Positions 3,942-48,254 are shown, counted from the first letter of the stretch. The stretch: DNA of 49,197 nucleotides from a virus (IMGVR_UViG_3300021962_000170:1-49197); one strand, 5' to 3'. Numbers and translations: made by a program. Notes: generated by a model not told the origin, from the sequence alone.

Positions 3942-5834
3942 ATGAACAATGATATGGTGGTTCTGCAAAACCTTGCGCCAAAAATTGTAAACAAACCGGC
4001 ACGTAATTTTATCGAGCCTGTAACAATAGAATACAGCGCAACAAGAAAAACAAAAATTACCTTTGCTCTATTTGGATCTTGGTCAATCCAAATGCCGCCA
4101 TATGGGTTGGCAAGGTTGGTGGCACTAACAAGAGCATCAGGATACAGTACTCAAGTTTATGATTTCAACGTTCAATCGTACTACGATCTAAAAGCGGAAG
4201 ATCCAGAGCTTGCAGGTGCATATGAGGTCGCCAACTATTGGTGGTGGGAAGAACCATACTACTCACAAAAGATCTTTCCTGTGTATCAACACTTGTTGAA
4301 AGAATATGTTGACACGATCCTTGAAGGTGAACCCGACATTGTTGGGCTTAGTGTTTACTACACAAACATTCTTTCAACCACTTGGGTAGTCAACGAGATC
4401 AAAAGAAGACGCCCACAAACGACAATTATATTTGGTGGGCCGCAGTGTAATGAGGGTCACTTTGAAAAGCCGGATAACGTCGATTACTATTTTATGGGTG
4501 AGAGCGAACAGACCATATTAGACTTTCTGAACAATTGGGAGAATGGTATAAAGCCAGATGCTCCAAAAATTGGTGCGTTGTTTGGTAAAGTTCGTGTGGA
4601 CATTGATAGTTTACCGCTTCCTGATTACTCTAGCTTTAGTCTATACAAATACACACTACCTAACTCTATCTGTACCGAGCTCAGCAGAGGATGTGTTGCA
4701 AGATGCACATACTGCAGCGAGGTGTGGTATTGGAAGTTTAGAGATAGAGATGCAATAGCTATTGTTGATGAATTGGAATACCAAGTAAAGAAATACAACT
4801 TGAATTTTGTGTTCTTTGTTGATAGTTTGGTCAATGGTAACGTCAATGGATTAAAGAGGTTCTGCGAAGAATTAATTAACAGAAACTTAAATATTCATTG
4901 GTGGGCATATGCTCGTATCGATGGCAGAATGGACTTAGAGTTCTACAGATTGATGAAAAGATCTGGCTGCATTGGTCTTAACTACGGTGTTGAATCTGGT
5001 AGTGATAAAGTTCTTATGGCAATCAACAAAAAGAACACTGTTGTTGAAATTAATCAGAATCTGATTGATAGTCAAATTGCTGGTATGAATGCAACCGTCT
5101 GTTGGGTGATTGGTGCGCCTGGCGAGGACATCGAAGCTATGAACCACAGTTTCAATTGTCTATGGAATCATAGAACGCGTATCTTTGCGATTAGCCCTGG
5201 CCCTGGTCTTGGTGACAATATTGGATCTGCATATGATGACAGAAAAAAATACAATATGAACGAACGAGACAAATACTGGCTTAAGGGTTGGTATACGTTA
5301 GATTTTACAAACACCAGATTGCACAGATACATTAGAATTAAGCTAATGCACATTTGGTTAGACTTGTGCAACACGTTTGATGGGTCTATAATAAACTCGC
5401 ACACTGTGGGGGACATAAAAGAACACTACACTGTTAAATTTAGTGACAATATTCCCCGTGAAGATGTTCAGTATGAGAATTTTGATTACAACATCATTGA
5501 ATCTGGTTTTGGTGTGTTTGCTGATACATCAATGAATGAAGTGTTTAGCTTTTTACGAATGTTGTGGAGAGCCAAAGGCGCGTATGAGATCAATATTAAG
5601 TTTAATCCAGATCTTGATTATAAGTCTTTCGCATTTTGTATTGATCCACCGTTTCAGACATATGTTGCAGATATCAACTTCAAGATTGATGAGCATGGCA
5701 ACTACACTGTCAACAACACGTACAGTTTTGAGAACCTTGACAGACTGTCTTTCATTGGCGATAAAGACTACAAGTACACATACTCAGCATCTGGCACATG
5801 GTATGACCCAAAAGGCACAGTTGAAAAAGTTTGA
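3942..5834 (+). CDS. B12-binding domain radical SAM enzyme (class B methyltransferase-like)
   Basis: PPYGLARL, PDIVGLS, IIFGGP cobalamin-binding motifs; SRGCVARCTYC; FVDS; GVESGS. Confidence 0.9.
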   Translation: MNNDMVVLQNLAPKIVNKPARNFIEPVTIEYSATRKTKITFALFGSWSIQMPPYGLARLVALTRASGYSTQVYDFNVQSYYDLKAEDPELAGAYEVANYWWWEEPYYSQKIFPVYQHLLKEYVDTILEGEPDIVGLSVYYTNILSTTWVVNEIKRRRPQTTIIFGGPQCNEGHFEKPDNVDYYFMGESEQTILDFLNNWENGIKPDAPKIGALFGKVRVDIDSLPLPDYSSFSLYKYTLPNSICTELSRGCVARCTYCSEVWYWKFRDRDAIAIVDELEYQVKKYNLNFVFFVDSLVNGNVNGLKRFCEELINRNLNIHWWAYARIDGRMDLEFYRLMKRSGCIGLNYGVESGSDKVLMAINKKNTVVEINQNLIDSQIAGMNATVCWVIGAPGEDIEAMNHSFNCLWNHRTRIFAISPGPGLGDNIGSAYDDRKKYNMNERDKYWLKGWYTLDFTNTRLHRYIRIKLMHIWLDLCNTFDGSIINSHTVGDIKEHYTVKFSDNIPREDVQYENFDYNIIESGFGVFADTSMNEVFSFLRMLWRAKGAYEINIKFNPDLDYKSFAFCIDPPFQTYVADINFKIDEHGNYTVNNTYSFENLDRLSFIGDKDYKYTYSASGTWYDPKGTVEKV

Positions 5835-5842
5835 AATAGCTG

Positions 5843-5871
5843 TTGACCTAAATGGCTATTTCGTATACTAT
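5843..5871 (+). promoter_or_regulatory. sigma70-like promoter for tmRNA
   Basis: ctgTTGACC-N17-TACTAT. Confidence 0.6.
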
Positions 5872-5877
5872 ATAAAT

Positions 5878-6200
5878 TGTAGACGTTGAAGCAACGTGGA
5901 CACATTCTGGACTCGGGGGCGGTACCCGACGACTCCACCACAGATACCGGTTAGTTATGGAACCCTTGGATGTATGAAGTGTTGCTATCATATGGCGAGA
6001 TAAGTTTATGTAACCGAGAAGATCGGTATCTTTGCTGGGGTCGAAATAGGATCGACAGGTGTGAAGATGACGTGGAGTTTACCGGATGGCCTCGTATCGG
6101 CCGCTAAACTAAATGCAAACGATAATTTTGCTCCTCAGGCTTACGCACTAGCTGCATAAGTACTTGGGTACGGCTCCACCTAGAAACAGAACGGGCCACT
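5878..6200 (+). ncRNA. ssrA: two-piece (circularly permuted) tmRNA; tag ANDNFAPQAYALAA*
   Basis: Acceptor piece ends CGACTCCACCA at 5940; coding piece starts GGGGTCG at 6037 (G3.U70 Ala identity) with AATAGGATCGAC; tag reading frame 6115-6159; outer ends approximate. Confidence 0.92.
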
Positions 6201-6230
6201 AAACGCGTTTAACAAATATAGGACTACCAA

Positions 6231-6626
6231 ATGAAAACCTTTCTTATGACCGCTGCTGCTGTTCTTGCTCTTTCTGCTAGCTCAGCTTTTGCTCTTGATT
6301 TCGGCACCACTGGTGTTGCTTTGAACACCGAAGTGACCAGCGAATACAACATCGACACTGAGCTGTTCACTGTTGTGACTACTCCAGAACTTGCTTACTC
6401 TCCAGTCGAGGGTCTTGGCTTGTATGTCAACACCGATCTAACCATCTATGATGGCTCTGATCTTATGGTGTTTGATGAGTCTGCTTTCACTGGTGTGACT
6501 GTTGGTGCTACTTACGTTCCAAACGTCAACCTTGGCAGCGCTTCTGTTGAGCTTTACCTCGAGACCAGCTTTGATGCTGATTTCAACCGCGAAGATGCAC
6601 TCGTTGGTGCTACGCTTAGCTTCTAA
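6231..6626 (+). CDS. small outer-membrane beta-barrel (porin-like) protein
   Basis: Signal peptide ending AFA, alternating amphipathic strands, C-terminal Phe (VGATLSF). Confidence 0.7.
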   Translation: MKTFLMTAAAVLALSASSAFALDFGTTGVALNTEVTSEYNIDTELFTVVTTPELAYSPVEGLGLYVNTDLTIYDGSDLMVFDESAFTGVTVGATYVPNVNLGSASVELYLETSFDADFNREDALVGATLSF

Positions 6627-42972: not shown

Positions 42973-43049
42973 GCTTCCATAGCTCAACTGGATAGAGCAA
43001 CGGATTTCTACTCCGCAGGTTGAGGGTTCGAGTCCTTCTGGGAGCACCA
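42973..43049 (+). tRNA. tRNA-Arg(UCU)
   Basis: Cloverleaf, loop TT-TCT-AC, GTTCGA, encoded CCA. Confidence 0.9.
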
Positions 43050-43050
43050 A

Positions 43051-43482
43051 CTATTTTCTTACACGAGATCTCCAAGTAGGTGTGAGAGCATGACAATTAC
43101 AACAAAGTAGTCGCAAGTTATCTCGGCTGTTGTTTCTATTGTCTCCATCAATATGATCTAACTCAAGAGGTATGGGTTGATTTTGCCAACTATCTAATTT
43201 ACAATGCCAACAAGTAGATCCATGTTCTTTTAACAATCTTTTCTTTATATTTACTGGCCGCTGCAAATTTTCAAACATTACAAACTCTTTACCTTTGTTA
43301 TGAGCTTGATGCAGCATATGAGATGTGTCTATTTTAAATTTTTCCACGTTTCTTTGGATGGTTGCAATAGAACCCCCTTTATCGCTAATGTTTAGCTTCC
43401 TACAACATTCAGCAAAAGATGTTGAGCTTTTTATTACTGGTTCTAGTAATTCTTTAGTATATGTGGTATATCGTCTAGACAT
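43051..43482 (-). CDS. HNH homing endonuclease
   Basis: CWHC...LELDHIDGDNRNNSRDNLRLLCCNCH; inverted and AT-rich, between tRNA genes. Confidence 0.9.
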   Translation of the reverse strand: MSRRYTTYTKELLEPVIKSSTSFAECCRKLNISDKGGSIATIQRNVEKFKIDTSHMLHQAHNKGKEFVMFENLQRPVNIKKRLLKEHGSTCWHCKLDSWQNQPIPLELDHIDGDNRNNSRDNLRLLCCNCHALTPTWRSRVRK

Positions 43483-43502
43483 AAATAAAGTTATCCTTTA
43501 AT

Positions 43503-43579
43503 GGGGGTGTAGTCCAAAGGCAGGAGACAACAGACTTAAAATCTGTACAGTGAGGGTTCGAGTCCCTCCACCCCTACCA
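43503..43579 (+). tRNA. tRNA-Leu(UAA), short variable arm
   Basis: acaga-CT-TAA-AA-tctgt, A73, CCA. Confidence 0.88.
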
Positions 43580-43583
43580 ATTT

Positions 43584-43591
43584 TATTTATA
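43584..43591 (-). promoter_or_regulatory. T4-type late promoter pointing at the HNH gene
   Basis: tatttata on + strand. Confidence 0.5.
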
Positions 43592-43606
43592 AGAATAACT
43601 ATCTAC

Positions 43607-43625
43607 AGTCCGACCATGGGCACCA
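43607..43625 (+). pseudogene. orphan tRNA 3'-end remnant
   Basis: agtccgaccatgggcACCA resembles T-loop end, T-stem, acceptor strand and CCA, with no 5' half. Confidence 0.45.
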
Positions 43626-43643
43626 ATCTTCTAAGGGGTTTAA

Positions 43644-43799
43644 ATGAGTAGCACAGATTACGCCGAACTTGCAGGATTGACTATCGCGTTGAGTCGTCTA
43701 TCACTCACATCTCTTGACTATCGAGATGAAGCATGGATTGCTACTACAGAGTGGATGACAGAGCGCATCAAGGATCTAAACAACAAAAAGAGACCATAA
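43644..43799 (+). CDS. small hypothetical protein (51 aa, not in ORF track)
   Basis: AAGGGG RBS; TAATG coupling to the next ORF. Confidence 0.55.
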   Translation: MSSTDYAELAGLTIALSRLSLTSLDYRDEAWIATTEWMTERIKDLNNKKRP

Positions 43800-43972
43800 T
43801 GTTTTACGTAAAAGAATACGGCTTCTACTATGAAAAGAAGCACGGACCGTATAGCACCTTGAAGGAAGCTATGGCTAAAAAGCCGGCTGATAAGACTGTT
43901 GGCCGCGAAGAAGCGTGTGTGAGGTTTACAATTGAATCTACAGAAGGTCAGGTTCAACTACTAAACGAATAA
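43799..43972 (+). CDS. small hypothetical protein
   Basis: MFYVKEYG...HGPYSTLKEA. Confidence 0.55.
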   Translation: MFYVKEYGFYYEKKHGPYSTLKEAMAKKPADKTVGREEACVRFTIESTEGQVQLLNE

Positions 43973-43973
43973 T

Positions 43974-44065
43974 GGAAGTGGGTGTTGGGACACAAGAGGG
44001 CCTTATAAACCCTTTAGCAGTAGATGACTGTTCTGGACCGAGATCGAAACTCGGCACTTCTACCA
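43974..44065 (+). tRNA. tRNA-Ile(UAU), atypical (long variable arm, short D arm)
   Basis: GGAAGTG/CACTTCT-A-CCA, loop CT-TAT-AA, T arm ccgag-ATCGAAA-ctcgg. Confidence 0.75.
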
Positions 44066-44066
44066 T

Positions 44067-44143
44067 ACTCCTGTAGCTCAGTTGGTTAGAGCTGGGCGCT
44101 CATAACGCCTAGGTCAGGGGTTCGAGTCCCTTCGGGAGTACCA
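44067..44143 (+). tRNA. tRNA-CAU (Met or Ile2)
   Basis: ggcg-CT-CAT-AA-cgcc, canonical cloverleaf, CCA. Confidence 0.88.
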
Positions 44144-44148
44144 ACTAT

Positions 44149-44156
44149 TATAAATA
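44149..44156 (+). promoter_or_regulatory. T4-type late promoter for dps
   Basis: TATAAATA 27 nt before ATG 44184. Confidence 0.7.
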
Positions 44157-44183
44157 GCTCAAACAGCTATAAGGAAAGCCTTA

Positions 44184-44618
44184 ATGGAAGCGTTAATTGA
44201 ACAACTAAAGGTTATGTTAGCAACAACCTTTTCATTTTATCTAAAAGCTCATAACTTCCATTGGAATGTTACGGGGCCAAACTTTACTGAGTATCACAAG
44301 TTTCTTGCTGATGTCTATGGTCAAGCGCATGAAGATGTTGATGGCTATGCAGAACTGATTCGTGCTATGGGTGGTTTTGCTCCTGGATCGTTGGCTCGCT
44401 TTGCAGAGTTGACTCGGATCCAAGATGAGTATAACATTCCTCCTGCAATGTTCATGTTTGCTCGCCTCGATGCTGATAATGATATCCTACGCACAGAGCT
44501 GTATGCAACTCACAAGTATGCTGAAGCTAATGGCCAAGCTGGTGTGACCAACTTCCTCGAAGATCGTATCCAGTACCACGACAAACTTAGCTGGATGCTA
44601 AAAAGTTTCAACAAATAA
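44184..44618 (+). CDS. dps: Dps / ferritin-like DNA protection protein
   Basis: KAHNFHWNVTGPNF..YHKF...D.YAELIRAMG...WMLKS. Confidence 0.9.
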   Translation: MEALIEQLKVMLATTFSFYLKAHNFHWNVTGPNFTEYHKFLADVYGQAHEDVDGYAELIRAMGGFAPGSLARFAELTRIQDEYNIPPAMFMFARLDADNDILRTELYATHKYAEANGQAGVTNFLEDRIQYHDKLSWMLKSFNK

Positions 44619-44629
44619 CAAAATAACTG

Positions 44630-44659
44630 TTGACTTACTGTAACAAAGTACTATATAAT
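44630..44659 (+). promoter_or_regulatory. sigma70-like promoter of the tRNA-array leader
   Basis: ctgTTGACT-N18-TATAAT. Confidence 0.7.
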
Positions 44660-44689
44660 AGAAGTACAAACAAAGGAACTCTACTGCAA

Positions 44690-44776
44690 ATGACTTCGCT
44701 GCATAAACAAAATCAAAACTGGTTTATGACCCCGCTCTGCGGCGAATATATTCGCATGTGTGGAGGCTCTATGTAA
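44690..44776 (+). CDS. putative attenuator leader peptide MTSLHKQNQNWFMTPLCGEYIRMCGGSM
   Basis: AAGGA at 44673-44677; 28 codons using 17 amino acids; 3' end overlaps the antiterminator strand. Confidence 0.65.
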   Translation: MTSLHKQNQNWFMTPLCGEYIRMCGGSM

Positions 44777-44812
44777 CGTATACCCGAAGTATACCTTATC
44801 AAAGAGCCCTCC
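44762..44812 (+). promoter_or_regulatory. putative antiterminator hairpin
   Basis: GGAGGCTCT(44762-70) pairs with AGAGCCCTCC(44803-12); inner TAA/TTA and GTATAC-ccgaa-GTATAC. Confidence 0.65.
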
Positions 44813-44838
44813 CAGATGAAAATCTCGGAGGGTTTTTT
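44803..44838 (+). terminator. intrinsic terminator between leader ORF and tRNA-Cys
   Basis: ccctcc-c-agat-GAAA-atct-c-ggaggg-TTTTTT. Confidence 0.85.
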
Positions 44839-44843
44839 AATAC

Positions 44844-44921
44844 GGTGTGGTGCTCGAGTGGCCCAAGGGAATGGATTGCAAATCCATAAAGTCGTGAGTT
44901 CGAATCTCACCCACACCTCCA
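44844..44921 (+). tRNA. tRNA-Cys(GCA)
   Basis: atgga-TT-GCA-AA-tccat, U73, CCA. Confidence 0.9.
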
Positions 44922-44923
44922 AT

Positions 44924-44998
44924 GTTGGTGTAGCTCAATGGTAGAGCGGCGGTCTCCAAAACCGCGCGTAGGGGGTTCGATTCCCTCCACCTTCGCCA
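44924..44998 (+). tRNA. tRNA-Trp(CCA)
   Basis: gcggt-CT-CCA-AA-accgc, G73; two U.U mismatches in acceptor stem. Confidence 0.85.
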
Positions 44999-45002
44999 AT
45001 TT

Positions 45003-45074
45003 GGTGACACCGCACGGTGCGGACATGGGTCTCATAAGCCCGTTGAGATGGTTCGAGTCCATCTGGCACCACCA
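45003..45074 (+). tRNA. tRNA-Met(CAU), atypical cloverleaf
   Basis: atgggt-CT-CAT-AA-gcccgt 6-bp stem; D hairpin abuts the acceptor strand; GTTCGAGT; CCA. Confidence 0.7.
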
Positions 45075-45084
45075 AAAATAACTG

Positions 45085-45113
45085 TTGACCTTTGTGTAGA
45101 CAATGTTTATATT
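45085..45113 (+). promoter_or_regulatory. sigma70-like promoter inside tRNA array
   Basis: ctgTTGACC-N17-TATATT. Confidence 0.7.
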
Positions 45114-45151
45114 AGGTTAACAAGGGACGAAGCGATCGCATCAATCTCCCA

Positions 45152-45167
45152 CGCTCTTTTACAATTT
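45152..45167 (+). promoter_or_regulatory. boxA-like antitermination element
   Basis: CGCTCTTTTACAATTT versus rrn boxA TGCTCTTTAACAATTT. Confidence 0.6.
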
Positions 45168-45207
45168 AGTATTTGTCCTAGCGTAAGCGATGATGGACTG
45201 GAAACAG

Positions 45208-45319
45208 ATGACTCTGTTTTCAACTAGGGTTCACGGTTCGATTCCGTGTTTGGCTTCGCGGGCCAATGTTGCTGCAGCAAAGTGTCATGGATGACGGCCC
45301 TAGCTGTAAACAGAGTTGT
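45208..45319 (+). ncRNA. structured ncRNA with permuted tRNA-like module (YrlA/Y-RNA-like)
   Basis: Long terminal stem enclosing T arm cacgg-TTCGATT-ccgtg, two small hairpins and gtcat-GG-atgac. Confidence 0.55.
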
Positions 45320-45394
45320 TGGGAGATAGCATAGTGGTTTTGCAGCAGACTTTGAATCTGTAGATCGAGGGTTCGAATCCTTCTCTCCCAGCCA
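45320..45394 (+). tRNA. tRNA-Gln(UUG)
   Basis: U1-A72, CT-TTG-AA loop, G73, CCA. Confidence 0.9.
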
Positions 45395-45401
45395 AAAACA
45401 T

Positions 45402-45475
45402 CAGGGTATGTTGTAGTGGTAGCTTGCTGGCCTTGGAAGCTCGCGGCGGTGGTTCAATTCCACCTACCCTGACCA
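45402..45475 (+). tRNA. tRNA-Pro(UGG)
   Basis: C1-G72, CT-TGG-AA loop, CCA. Confidence 0.85.
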
Positions 45476-45484
45476 AAATAGCTG

Positions 45485-45513
45485 TTGACTTCTGTGTTCA
45501 AAGGTGTTATATT
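45485..45513 (+). promoter_or_regulatory. sigma70-like promoter
   Basis: ctgTTGACT-N17-TATATT. Confidence 0.7.
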
Positions 45514-45536
45514 AATAACATCGAAGGAGATCACAG

Positions 45537-45671
45537 ATGATCCATACAGGAAACATAAGCTATCTAAACAAAGTGCATCGTTCGTACGGTGTTTGGAAAT
45601 ACACTATGGTTACGTTGAAGCGTTGGTCTGACGGTAAGATGACTGTCATGTTCAAGGAGAAAGAAGTATGA
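45537..45671 (+). CDS. small hypothetical protein (44 aa)
   Basis: AAGGAG RBS; ATGA overlap with next ORF. Confidence 0.6.
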   Translation: MIHTGNISYLNKVHRSYGVWKYTMVTLKRWSDGKMTVMFKEKEV

Positions 45672-45847
45672 AAACTTATCCGATTAAAATTGAGTCAGAC
45701 ATTTACCAATACGGCGATAGTGTGTTTGTTTGGTTTGACGAGACTGGTGGTGTTGGTGGTGCTTCCAACTACCTCAGTGAGGCAAAAGCACAGATGAATA
45801 GATATGCGGAGAGCTTAAATGAAACGAAAACAGAAAGAGCTTCCTAA
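45668..45847 (+). CDS. small hypothetical protein (59 aa)
   Basis: AAGGAG RBS; MKTYPIKIESDIYQ...VWFDETGG. Confidence 0.6.
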   Translation: MKTYPIKIESDIYQYGDSVFVWFDETGGVGGASNYLSEAKAQMNRYAESLNETKTERAS

Positions 45848-45974
45848 ACAACGCAACCCTTATGTTGAGCATATGCGCTTCAAGGTTGCTGGTGCTCATG
45901 GGAAGAGTAAGAAAGTTCAACGCCGTGATGATAAAATGGCTTTGAAGAATGGATCGGTAGCTGAGCTGGTTTAG
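45819..45974 (+). CDS. small very basic protein (51 aa), stop inside tRNA-Lys
   Basis: GGAG RBS; MKRKQKELPKQRNPYV...AGAHGKSKKVQRR. Confidence 0.55.
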   Translation: MKRKQKELPKQRNPYVEHMRFKVAGAHGKSKKVQRRDDKMALKNGSVAELV

Positions 45975-46027
45975 CGATGGACTTTTAATCCGTGTCAACC
46001 TGGGTTCGAACCCCAGTCGATCCACCA
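45951..46027 (+). tRNA. tRNA-Lys(UUU)
   Basis: atgga-CT-TTT-AA-tccgt, CCA. Confidence 0.9.
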
Positions 46028-46139
46028 TTACTTTGATGATATACTACATGCACCATTCGAAAGATGTAAGCGGGTAGACATGGTAGTATTGCTTGCAACA
46101 CAGCAGTATAACGCTTTGGTAGTGTATCTTCTAAGTAAT

Positions 46140-46214
46140 GCGCCGGTAGCTCAGAGGCAGAGCAGGGGTCTCTTAAACCCAAGGTCAGGATTTCGAAATT
46201 CCTCCGGCACACCA
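46140..46214 (+). tRNA. tRNA-Lys(CUU)
   Basis: gggt-CT-CTT-AA-accc, CCA. Confidence 0.88.
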
Positions 46215-46341
46215 AAACGCGCCCTTTGACGTTGAAACAGACTAGGGTGATGGCAAATGATTCTCTCCAGTCCGGCCGGATAAACGGGAGACGTCTAAAT
46301 AACCATCCGCTGCTAAACTGCGATAGTGTTTAGTGCAATTT

Positions 46342-46419
46342 TGTCCCAGAGTCGTCCAGGTGACGGCACGTGACTGTTAATCACGATGGAGGCAGGTTCG
46401 AGTCCTGCTGGGACAGCCA
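46342..46419 (+). tRNA. tRNA-Asn(GUU), 6-bp D stem
   Basis: cgtga-CT-GTT-AA-tcacg, G73; gtcgtc/gacggc D stem. Confidence 0.85.
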
Positions 46420-46423
46420 ACAT

Positions 46424-46498
46424 GCCTTGGTAGCTCAATGGTAGAGCGCCTGCCTGAAGAGCAGGGCGTAGGGAGTTCGATTCTCCCCCTCGGCACCA
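46424..46498 (+). tRNA. tRNA-Phe(GAA)
   Basis: cctgc-CT-GAA-GA-gcagg; two acceptor-stem mismatches. Confidence 0.85.
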
Positions 46499-46546
46499 AT
46501 TGTGTCAGATCCGGCTGCACATTAAAAGAATTTCCGGCTGAATTTT

Positions 46547-46621
46547 GGTCCTATAGCTCAGTGGTAGAGCAAAGAGCTGATAACTCTTAGGTCAGGTGTT
46601 CAATTCACCTTAGGACTACCA
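46547..46621 (+). tRNA. tRNA-Ile(GAU)
   Basis: aagag-CT-GAT-AA-ctctt, CCA. Confidence 0.9.
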
Positions 46622-46626
46622 AGTTT

Positions 46627-46718
46627 GGGTGTGTCAAATAAGGCTATGCTGGTGCTAGCAGCGGACTGTAAATCCGTTCCTGAAGAGGCAAGTTGTTCGA
46701 TTCAACACACACCCACCA
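46627..46718 (+). tRNA. tRNA-Tyr(GUA), atypical 8/4 fold
   Basis: gcgga-CT-GTA-AA-tccgt; gggtgtgt/acacaccc acceptor, gttg/caac T stem, extra 8-nt linker before D arm. Confidence 0.8.
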
Positions 46719-46726
46719 ATAACCAT

Positions 46727-46803
46727 GCAGCGTCAGACTAGATGGGGTGGTCGCCGTACTTTCAATTCGGAGATGACGGGTTCGATACCCGTACGCTGTA
46801 CCA
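46727..46803 (+). tRNA. tRNA-Glu(UUC)
   Basis: CT-TTC-AA loop, CCA. Confidence 0.85.
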
Positions 46804-46808
46804 ATCAA

Positions 46809-46885
46809 CTCCCATAGGACTACCAGGCGATGGTCGCTGCCCTCTCAAGGCAGAGAAGCGGATTCGAGCTCCGCATGGGGGACCA
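46809..46885 (+). tRNA. tRNA-Glu(CUC)
   Basis: ctgcc-CT-CTC-AA-ggcag, CCA. Confidence 0.85.
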
Positions 46886-46891
46886 ATTTAC

Positions 46892-46965
46892 ATCCCTGTA
46901 GCATAATGGCAGTGCGCTGTCCTGACTCGACAGATGAGAAGGCTCGATTCCTTCCAGGGATACCA
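46892..46965 (+). tRNA. tRNA-Val(GAC)
   Basis: ctgtc-CT-GAC-TC-gacag (U37 unusual), A73, CCA. Confidence 0.8.
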
Positions 46966-46970
46966 ATAAC

Positions 46971-47044
46971 GCTGCTATAGTATAAAGGTATTATGCATCT
47001 TTGGTAAGGATGAGACGGAGGATCGTTACCTCCTAGCAGCACCA
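46971..47044 (+). tRNA. tRNA-Thr(GGU)
   Basis: catct-TT-GGT-AA-ggatg, CCA. Confidence 0.88.
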
Positions 47045-47047
47045 ATT

Positions 47048-47120
47048 GCTTCTGCCGGCGGATCCGGTGGCGGGTCTACGAAGCCTGCTCACGAATGTTC
47101 AACTCATTCCAGGAGCGCCA
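47048..47120 (+). tRNA. tRNA-Arg(ACG), atypical cloverleaf
   Basis: gcgggt-CT-ACG-AA-gcctgc 6-bp stem; D hairpin ccgg-cggat-ccgg abuts acceptor strand; CCA. Confidence 0.75.
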
Positions 47121-47138
47121 TAAACAAAGAGGTTGACA

Positions 47139-47405
47139 ATGTCTAAAGTACCATATACAATTAACATCGACCGCTACATCTGCACCGAGCTTGAATACAT
47201 TCGGAAGATGAACGAGAATCGTGACTATTCGATGCTTGCTGCTACAATTGAGCGTATTCAGTATCACGCTTCGTCAATGGAAGATGCTCTGTATCGTTAC
47301 GATGATATCAAGTACAAGTTGAAGAGCGATGTTGAAGACAAAGATATGAGTGATGCAGACTTTCGTAAGAAAGCTGTTGAAGTGTTGAAACTGCTTGAAA
47401 AATAA
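47139..47405 (+). CDS. hypothetical protein within tRNA array
   Basis: GAGGT RBS; RYICTELEYIRKM...ERIQYHASSMEDAL. Confidence 0.7.
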   Translation: MSKVPYTINIDRYICTELEYIRKMNENRDYSMLAATIERIQYHASSMEDALYRYDDIKYKLKSDVEDKDMSDADFRKKAVEVLKLLEK

Positions 47406-47411
47406 CAAATT

Positions 47412-47486
47412 GCCTCCATAGCTCAGCGGAAGAGTACTGGTCTTCGAAACCAAGGGTCGGGAGTTCGAATCTCTCTGGGGGCCCCA
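47412..47486 (+). tRNA. tRNA-Arg(UCG)
   Basis: tggt-CT-TCG-AA-acca, CCA. Confidence 0.85.
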
Positions 47487-47621
47487 ATAAAAACACTATA
47501 GTAGAGGTCGACATCTGCTATAATGAGAATACTGCGTGCGCCACAGGGCTACTCGGCGCATCGGGGCTGGTAACAGCGTAGGGGTAAAAGTCCCAATTGT
47601 GAGATGGCCCAGAAATTTAAT

Positions 47622-47697
47622 GCCGTGACAAGTGTAAGTGGAAGCATATCTCACTGTGACTGAGATGGAATGGGATCGAAGCCCATGCACGGTACCA
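47622..47697 (+). tRNA. tRNA-His(GUG), alphaproteobacterial type (no G-1, A73)
   Basis: tctca-CT-GTG-AC-tgaga; G1.U72, A73, preceded by T not G. Confidence 0.82.
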
Positions 47698-47712
47698 ATT
47701 TGAGAGGGATAT

Positions 47713-48012
47713 ATGATGGTTAAGGTTCTGATATACGGCGCGAAAGATATTTTTGATGCTGCTTCCTATGAAGGTCGAGCAGAATCTGATATTGTAGCTT
47801 ATCGTAAAGATGATGGATGTTATCAAATCATAAAGAACCGAACCGGTCGCTATCTGGGTTCTTATACAACTTTCCACGGTTTGCAACTTGAGCTCAAATG
47901 GATTGAGCGTGATGAGTTCGACCAAGAATTAAAGAATTACAAGCTAGCTCAGCGATATGTGGATCATCCTAATATCGAGCTTAGCAAGAATGCGGATGTA
48001 GCTCAGGGGTAG
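47713..48012 (+). CDS. hypothetical protein, stop inside tRNA-Gly
   Basis: GAGGG RBS; 99 aa. Confidence 0.6.
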   Translation: MMVKVLIYGAKDIFDAASYEGRAESDIVAYRKDDGCYQIIKNRTGRYLGSYTTFHGLQLELKWIERDEFDQELKNYKLAQRYVDHPNIELSKNADVAQG

Positions 48013-48066
48013 AGCGTCACGTTGCCAACGTGAATGTCACGGGTTCGAATCCCGTTATCCGCTCCA
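47992..48066 (+). tRNA. tRNA-Gly(GCC)
   Basis: GCGGATG start, tcacg-TT-GCC-AA-cgtga, U73, CCA. Confidence 0.92.
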
Positions 48067-48071
48067 ATAAT

Positions 48072-48149
48072 GTCCTTGTAATGGAAACTGGTAAACCTCT
48101 TCCGTCGAGAGCGGCAGGCTTGCGGGTTCGAGTCCCGCCAAGGACACCA
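48072..48149 (+). tRNA. tRNA-Leu(GAG), short variable arm, C33
   Basis: gtccttg/caaggac-A-CCA; ccg-TC-GAG-AG-cgg; GTTCGAGT. Confidence 0.7.
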
Positions 48150-48156
48150 ATAATGT

Positions 48157-48232
48157 TCTCCCTTCGTCTATGCCGGTAGGACGCCTGACTCTGAATCAGG
48201 AAACCGTGGTTCGAGTCCACGAGGGAGATCCA
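48157..48232 (+). tRNA. tRNA-Gln(CUG)
   Basis: cctga-CT-CTG-AA-tcagg, U1-A72, CCA. Confidence 0.88.
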
Positions 48233-48246
48233 ATATATTGTGATCA

Positions 48247-48254
48247 TATAAATA
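48247..48254 (+). promoter_or_regulatory. T4-type late promoter
   Basis: TATAAATA 30 nt before ATG 48285. Confidence 0.7.

Follow-up and report, generated by a model that had tools for sequence, protein, structure and literature searches.

The DNA examined here is a viral stretch of 49,197 nucleotides (IMGVR_UViG_3300021962_000170:1-49197; hereafter the window), in which a Dps/ferritin-like gene is followed on the same strand by a short leader open reading frame (ORF), an intrinsic terminator and an array of 21 tRNA genes (Table 1). A first-pass annotation had proposed that the leader and its terminator form an attenuator which senses the tRNA pool through many codons and admits transcription into the array. 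The leader promoter, the AAGGA ribosome-binding site and the 28-codon ORF were located as that annotation had claimed. The promoter is conserved in loci L250, L267 and L268, and the ribosome-binding site also occurs in L267, L268 and L270. No terminator was found between dps and the leader. Only 5 nt separate the U tract of the leader terminator from the start of tRNA-Cys, the first gene of the array. The count of 21 downstream tRNAs was borne out, with 18 called by ARAGORN at default settings, tRNA-His by Rfam and relaxed ARAGORN, and tRNA-Tyr(GTA) and tRNA-Arg(ACG) read solely by hand from their folds.

The strong terminator expected just before tRNA-Cys was recovered by folding, having been missed by a simple terminator scan. 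An alternative hairpin at 44755-44818 (-25.8, z -6.2, with 0 of 200 shuffles equally stable) excludes it because both structures need the 5' strand 44803-44812, as the annotation had recognised. Among the six plus-strand terminator-like hairpins of the window, the leader's alone is accompanied by both a short ORF and a strong pairing strand. Snapshot folding of the window leader before region 4 exists, in which the length of the ribosome footprint was assumed, gave a probability of 2:3 pairing of 0.8-0.99 with a ribosome stalled at codons 2-21, 0.9 without a ribosome and 0 when region 2 was covered. Because the 1:2 hairpin is not a significant protector (z -1.0), an untranslated leader is predicted by this model to read through rather than to terminate.

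The codons of the leader mirror the array. Each of codons 5-24 is read by the array, 16 different tRNAs being involved as had been claimed, and a run of at least 20 array-read codons in 27 random codons has P = 3e-4, the array decoding 34 of the 61 codons, or 62% of the window's coding codons. The annotation had also stressed that 17 amino acids occur in 28 codons; the count is correct, but by itself it is not significant (P = 0.095). Five of the 21 array tRNAs go unsampled by the leader (Lys-CTT, Glu-CTC, Val-GAC, Arg-TCG and Gln-CTG; the leader is without any Val), and the codons AGA, AGG, TTA, TTG and ATA are missing from it. The predicted sensing window probably runs from codon 5 to about codon 22, with codons 23-24 lying past it.

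Conservation of the Leader and Its Codon Match

Relatives of the element were sought in IMG/VR with a pattern of the pairing core only (GGAGG, CCTCC, GGAGG and a T tract), holding no information on tRNAs or ORFs, and flanks were obtained for 80 loci among the matches listed. Same-strand tRNAs lay within 1.5 kb of 29 of the 66 distinct usable GGAGG-core matches (again among the matches listed), versus 0 of 67 for a GGCGG control; the latter result is compatible with a GGAGG preference. Four narrower scans enlarged the set to 225 matches, duplicates included. An ORF of 12-45 codons ending 12-20 nt after GGAGG was present in 62/68 tRNA-linked distinct matches versus 13/71 others, and so the layout of a short upstream ORF (uORF) plus terminator, which the annotation had suggested seeking before related phage tRNA arrays, is conserved across many phages that are not related to one another. 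Clustering at 70% identity gave 54 clusters, of which the 49 with at least three tRNAs were kept and five dropped; the rule by which leaders were chosen was blind to tRNA content.

Across these 49 clusters, leader codons were read by their own array at a fraction of 0.64 versus 0.44 for shuffled arrays (z ~11, 0 of 20,000 shuffles), and leaders sampled 0.78 of the anticodons of their own array versus 0.52 after shuffling (z ~11). Leader codons therefore vary with array content, as the annotation's proposed comparison of related arrays had envisaged. With coarser clustering (24 clusters used) the z-score of the leader-array match was still ~9, and five new clusters from a held-out metagenome scan agreed with it (p 0.017). 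Elsewhere the array-read fraction was lower, at 0.43 in protein genes of the same loci and at 0.37 and 0.41 in the two other frames of the leaders; the leader exceeded the protein-gene background in 42/48 loci. ARAGORN overlooks some phage tRNAs, which should dilute the signal rather than create it. The leader ORF, the exclusive folds and the codon match are conserved features of these loci.

The match follows the genes that lie behind the terminator. In 12 partly related loci with tRNAs on both sides of the leader, 119 of the 155 anticodons found only downstream were sampled (77 expected), as against 3 of the 59 found only upstream (24 expected). Where tRNA-Arg(TCT), Leu(TAA) or Ile(TAT) lay upstream, none of 26 leader codons used the ungated isoacceptor (7.8 expected). 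Sub-families of leaders keep recognisable peptide motifs; between lineages the peptides are unrelated and their composition follows the tRNA block. Some tRNAs were rarely sampled in the 49 representatives (Leu-CAA, Glu-CTC, Pro-CGG, Lys-CTT and Arg-TCG; 0-3 of 5-12), and others almost always (Cys in 28/28, Ile(GAT) in 28/29). A blastn search of the leader region against cultured phages matched tRNA-Trp alone. In bacterial genomes, 19 of 120 core matches among those listed preceded a real tRNA, three of which passed the leader filter and one of which (L407) is plausible; that scan favoured one tRNA type.

Pairing and Ribosome Geometry

The excess of the leader-array match was ~+0.2 up to codon -3 before GGAGG, at most +0.03 at codons -2 to -1, and absent from GGAGG onwards (0.40 versus 0.40). 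The match ends where a stalled ribosome would start covering the pairing strand, and the last leader codons are also constrained by RNA pairing. In folds made before region 4 was included, the antiterminator formed in 94-98% of loci for stalls at codons -4 to -16, and without a ribosome its P(2:3) was above 0.5 in 38/49 loci. Pairing outside the fixed core was seen in 99 of 196 cases versus 77 with shuffled partners (p 0.0002; duplex -18.6 versus -15.2 kcal/mol), which answers in the affirmative the annotation's call for hairpin covariation: pairing is kept through changed sequences. L026, L071, L288 and L314 have different pairing sequences with pairing retained. When the core was not required, a search of the retrieved loci located 21 further terminators ahead of tRNA blocks, and five of these had both a leader and a duplex at least as stable as -8.

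We also considered that GGAGG might be kept for anti-Shine-Dalgarno pairing of a ribosome at the stop codon. This role was rejected as not needed, given that the core is fixed by the pattern, that other cores exist and that the cyanophage S-PM2 has the opposite polarity.

Cultured Phages

The element is also present in cultured phages, whose annotations omit the leaders or list them as hypothetical proteins. Cellulophaga phages phi38:1 and phi4:1 have three leaders each, Maribacter phage Panino two and Caulobacter phage phiCbK three, and their arrays are split into blocks. Every one of these 11 leaders best matched its own block (74/81 anticodons versus 39/147 for sister blocks), an optimistic figure as the leaders were picked by eye with the blocks in view. 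The phiCbK leaders use different pairing sequences with pairing retained, and in one of them, gp335, the predicted antiterminator forms both with and without a ribosome at the stop codon. S-PM2 has a late-type motif and a 34-codon leader, 18 of whose 20 sensing codons are read by a block covering 25 of the 61 codons; its antiterminator has reversed purine/pyrimidine polarity and, as in the window, a tRNA-Arg(TCT) gene lies upstream and ungated. In KVP40 there is a weak candidate, with 19 amino acids among 37 codons (P 0.03) and modest pairing. The stretches retrieved for T5, Vibrio phage Ceto, RpAliso, RHph_X66 and Hallingskeid showed no such element ahead of their arrays.

Some further observations concern individual phages. 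At 5302-5390 of phiCbK (L584), a leader with Glu and Asp codons precedes tRNA-Glu/Asp with a different wiring, the 5' strand of the terminator lying inside the ORF. ARAGORN calls Thr, His, Ala and Arg tRNAs in the phiCbK array, and Tyr and Asn tRNAs were read by eye; in the available part of the phiCbK genome paper the phage is reported to be without Thr, Tyr, Asn, His, Ala and Arg tRNAs, and the tRNA and terminator passages mention neither leaders nor these terminators (PMC3556154). Six non-coding RNAs are reported for phi38:1 in the accessible text of PMC5335546, and these could be terminated leaders.

tRNA Array and Genomic Setting

Table 1. Features of the leader element, the tRNA array and their surroundings in the window.
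Feature	Position	Strand	Basis or measure
Permuted tmRNA, alphaproteobacterial-type, phage-encoded	5839-6250		
Ungated tRNAs preceding the leader: Arg(TCT), Leu(TAA), weak Ile(TAT) call at 43974, Met(CAT)	42973..44143	+	
HNH endonuclease gene, between tRNA-Arg(TCT) and tRNA-Leu(TAA)	43051-43482	-	
TATAAATA, presumed T4-like late-promoter motif, upstream of dps	44149..44156	+	
Dps/ferritin-like gene	44184..44618	+	
Leader promoter, sigma-70-type, TTGACT-N18-TATAAT	44630..44659	+	11/12 consensus matches
AAGGA ribosome-binding site	44673..44677	+	ATG 12 nt downstream
Leader ORF, 28 codons	44690..44776	+	
Weak 1:2 hairpin	44730..44770	+	z -1.0; 31/200 shuffles equally stable
Region 2, antiterminator 5' strand	44759..44770	+	GGAGG at 44762-44766, codons 25-27
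Small inner hairpin after the stop codon	44778..44794	+	Fits both folds
Intrinsic terminator (3:4 hairpin and U tract)	44801..44838	+	-21.8 kcal/mol, z -6.6; 0/200 shuffles equally stable
Region 3, shared strand	44803..44812	+	Partner is region 2 or region 4
tRNA-Cys(GCA), Trp(CCA), Met(CAT); no promoter-like site separating them from the terminator	44844..45074	+	ARAGORN
Internal sigma-70-type promoter (45085-45113), then boxA-like motif (45153-45164)	45085..45164	+	
tRNA-Gln(TTG), Pro(TGG)	45320..45475	+	ARAGORN
Second internal sigma-70-type promoter, ahead of three small ORFs	45485..45513	+	
tRNA-Lys(TTT), Lys(CTT), Asn, Phe, Ile(GAT), Tyr(GTA, 46627-46718), Glu(TTC), Glu(CTC), Val(GAC), Thr(GGT), Arg(ACG, 47048-47120)	45951..47120	+	ARAGORN; Tyr and Arg(ACG) from folds
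Third internal sigma-70-type promoter	47133..47161	+	
tRNA-Arg(TCG), His(GTG, 47622-47697), Gly(GCC), Leu(GAG), Gln(CTG)	47412..48232	+	

The two internal promoters that the annotation had noted, at 45085 and 45485, are both present, and the former is conserved in L267, L268 and L270; the list was incomplete, as a third site lies at 47133. All three resemble the leader promoter, including its upstream motif, and no strong terminator was found within the array. The attenuator is therefore probably not the sole route to the distal tRNAs. The boxA-like motif at 45153-45164 has a counterpart in the equivalent place in L268 and L270. The segment 45085-45316 holds the promoter, this motif and a long stalk around a variable small RNA, with a fold z of only -1.9; its frame is conserved in L267, L268 and L270 and the inserts differ. 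Structured spacers between tRNAs (46030-46140, 46215-46340 and 47520-47620) had no Rfam match at the gathering score. In L267, 87 nt past the terminator, there is a near-duplicate tRNA-Trp with an altered anticodon loop that ARAGORN calls SeC(TCA). In L204, L211, L068, L239 and L257 the U tract of the attenuator is followed at 4-13 nt by a boxA-like motif, a position that would suit protection of an untranslated read-through transcript from Rho.

The octamer TATAAATA presumably marks late promoters, as in T4-like phages. This late-type motif is the last before the array, and the next lies at 48248; ATAAATA motifs in the window number 12 on the plus strand and two on the minus strand. The sequence ATAAATA occurs upstream of 25 of the 49 leaders (against 5.7 in shuffles and 1 on the opposite strand), and its presence showed no association with a promoter before the first tRNA (6/9 versus 19/40, p 0.46). 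The ungated tRNA-Arg(TCT) and tRNA-Leu(TAA) of the window each have ATAAATA 15-22 nt upstream (42958 and 43481).

The 49-kb contig comes from a large phage, and its virion gene has 45-47% identity to T4-like cyanophage counterparts. The tmRNA is the best hint of the host group, which its sequence suggests to be alphaproteobacterial. The HNH gene is likely a recent insertion, because tRNA-Arg(TCT) and tRNA-Leu(TAA) adjoin in L250, L267, L268 and L270. A single-protein search with Dps led to two loci, both without tRNAs. Freshwater metatranscriptome runs contain near-identical sequence; contigs from four runs cover the region in part, one of them 44375-44788, and as assembled contigs they are uninformative on ends, strand and level.

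Discussion

We consider it likely, with a probability of roughly 0.85, that the element acts by ribosome-coupled transcription attenuation, in which the speed of decoding lets transcription into the tRNA array. A ribosome at the last codons or the stop codon would cover region 2, the terminator would form, and polymerase would then stop 5 nt ahead of tRNA-Cys. With a ribosome stalled anywhere from codon 2 to about codon 22, or with none, region 2 would remain available to pair with region 3 ahead of the synthesis of region 4, and polymerase would read through into the array. Slow decoding of any listed codon would be a switch on, and the new tRNAs would speed the ribosome and close the switch again, a negative feedback. 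The conserved layout, the leader codons tracking block content and the kept pairing all support, at the level of sequence, the annotation's reading of a multi-codon sensor of the tRNA pool.

Several results weigh against this interpretation. In the full transcript at equilibrium the terminator is favoured at nearly every ribosome position, and therefore the switch must be kinetic. Related leaders show no excess of third-position substitutions (150/413, p 0.11; 35/90, p 0.16), and the alignment gaps between them are mostly not multiples of three (48/64; 6/9). The GGAGG core is fixed by the search pattern, and the clusters are not fully independent lineages. Synonymous choice within the codon boxes of the array shows no more than a weak enrichment (z 2.4 and 1.7), and the leader-array match falls with distance, to ~0.55 beyond 3 kb. 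In addition, a sigma-70-like site occurs within the array in 30/49 loci and before its first tRNA in 9/49.

What the attenuator would respond to is a separate matter. The likeliest trigger, which we favour with some reserve, is the loss of functional tRNA during infection, whether by host tRNA nucleases or by general RNA decay. The same attenuator might instead respond mainly to uncharged tRNA, as in amino-acid starvation, or to translation that is slowed for whatever reason. That alternative, clearly the less probable but to be taken seriously, draws on the match being strong at the level of amino acids (0.76 versus 0.55) with synonymous choice weak, on the read-through predicted without any ribosome, and on the same RNA core standing before host aroF-like, asnA and argG genes whose leaders hold matching amino acids. 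However, extra tRNA does not remedy a shortage of amino acids, the leaders shun the codons of out-of-block isoacceptors even though the same amino acids are used (0/26 against 7.8), and one array split into blocks with separate leaders fits tRNA-specific loss.

It is also conceivable, albeit unlikely, that a real attenuator here gates tRNA-Cys, Trp and Met alone, the other 18 tRNAs being served by internal promoters and the wider match being inherited. The upstream motif that sites 45085, 45485 and 47133 share with the leader promoter, and the conservation of the first of them in L267, L268 and L270, speak for such a restriction. Against it, the match persists for anticodons beyond the first internal promoter (217/306, compared with 83/101 before that promoter and ~0.52 on shuffling), L270 with a diverged leader has just tRNA-Met before its internal promoter and 12 of 16 anticodons sampled, the array is uninterrupted by terminators, and the stretch from 44156 to 48248 is free of late-type motifs. 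A peptide that is itself the functional product, a small effector whose hairpins merely end the transcript, is very improbable: some leader peptides do act in trans, peTrpL being an example in the available text of PMC7968998, and sub-families have recognisable motifs, but the peptides are unrelated between lineages, their composition tracks the tRNA block, none of five leaders matched NCBIfam, and the codon match stops at the pairing strand. Least credible of all is a plain dps terminator with a chance ORF and chance complementarity. Chance short ORFs do accompany 13 of 71 non-tRNA matches and the third-position signal is absent, yet this explanation is contradicted by all of the family statistics and would leave tRNA-Cys, Trp and Met without a promoter.

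If ribosome-coupled attenuation operates as proposed, tRNA-Cys, Trp and Met would need read-through at all times in the window genome. Whether the distal tRNAs need it mainly late in infection is, to our minds, an even call, argued by analogy with T4-like phages: because late-type motifs lie only upstream of the leader, early expression could come from the internal promoters and late expression only via the attenuator.

More broadly, we lean slightly towards the view that large phages of Alphaproteobacteria, Bacteroidota and Cyanobacteria carry widespread, unpublished tRNA-pool sensors, each tRNA block standing behind a leader spelled in the codons of that block, such that host tRNA-cutting immunity would be detected via ribosome stalling and just the lost set replaced. 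Should this be true, the leaders would be a sequence record of attacked tRNAs. It is a long-standing question whether phage tRNAs serve codon bias or replace destroyed host tRNA, and the window genome would separate both roles, with Arg(TCT), Leu(TAA) and Ile(TAT) upstream and ungated and the rest behind a sensor that names them. A switch working in this manner would constitute a feedback loop on the tRNA pool, a protein-free counter-defence sensor and a reporter for tRNA-targeting immunity, and could be tested in the cultured pairs phiCbK/Caulobacter, phi38:1/Cellulophaga and S-PM2/Synechococcus.

Comparison with Known Systems

The trp, his, thr, ilv and phe leaders and pheM-pheST are known attenuators of amino-acid operons, of which thrL and ilvGMEDA are multivalent. 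As in ribosome-mediated attenuators generally, the phage element has a leader ORF and ribosome-binding site at a conserved distance from the terminator, exclusive folds, and control codons upstream of region 2. The features of a strict classical attenuator that were not found are a 1:2 protector (z -1.0), downstream genes that make or load the sensed amino acid, and matches to library models: Rfam His_leader scored 19.1 bits against a cut-off of 49, and NCBIfam leader-peptide models had no match for 5/5 leaders. The trp/his-type label given by the annotation consequently holds for the ribosome-coupled layout, but the element is closer to the thr/ilv type, with its pairing strand inside the ORF, several amino acids and no significant protector hairpin. 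It shares with the thrL, ilvGMEDA and pheM-pheST leaders a short ORF, exclusive 2:3/3:4 hairpins, a pairing strand in the last codons, and a stop codon placed so that a finishing ribosome covers that strand. Unlike the leaders of amino-acid operons, it controls tRNA genes rather than enzymes, and has 7-20 different codons, mostly once or twice, rather than runs of one to three amino acids. Unlike classical attenuators, it is viral, often occurs several times per genome with one per tRNA block, and is without a significant 1:2 protector, so that the switch is predicted to be ON when the leader is untranslated.

The same GGAGG/CCCTCC core was also seen before host genes for DAHP synthase (aroF-like), asnA and argG (L648, L655 and L600), with leaders containing aromatic residues, Asn and Arg, respectively. 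These host genes are a possible origin of the phage element, and those before argG and asnA may represent host attenuators not described so far.

A T-box binds one uncharged tRNA directly, without a ribosome, and works through a terminator/antiterminator switch. The phage element resembles it in having such a switch tied to the state of tRNA, and differs in that its information sits in the reading frame; no T-box (specifier loop, T-box bulge) was matched in Rfam at the gathering score or at E up to 10.

Other systems share parts of the proposed logic. The trn operon of Anabaena PCC 7120 is, in the available portions of the reports on it, a spare tRNA array induced by translational stress (PMC8421152, PMC10272220), but control there is described as exerted by the repressor TrcR at promoter repeats and not as codon-specific, and the words attenuat- and leader are absent from PMC8421152. 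In the rescue of phages T5 and SP15 from retron Eco7 by tRNA-Tyr, for which the level of expression, from a strong promoter, matters, the likeness is the supply of phage tRNA as a counter-defence, and the difference is that no attenuator or leader is mentioned in the accessible part of that paper (PMC11555353). The toiL uORF of topAI-yjhQ shows, as far as the available text goes, that one uORF can sense several kinds of ribosome stalling, although it senses antibiotics, controls a toxin-antitoxin pair and has no codon list mirroring the regulated genes (PMC12121999). Targeted literature searches, with subscription journals mostly outside their scope, turned up no account of attenuators that control tRNA arrays in phages. 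The element is best regarded as a real, widespread and apparently unpublished variant of ribosome-mediated attenuation.

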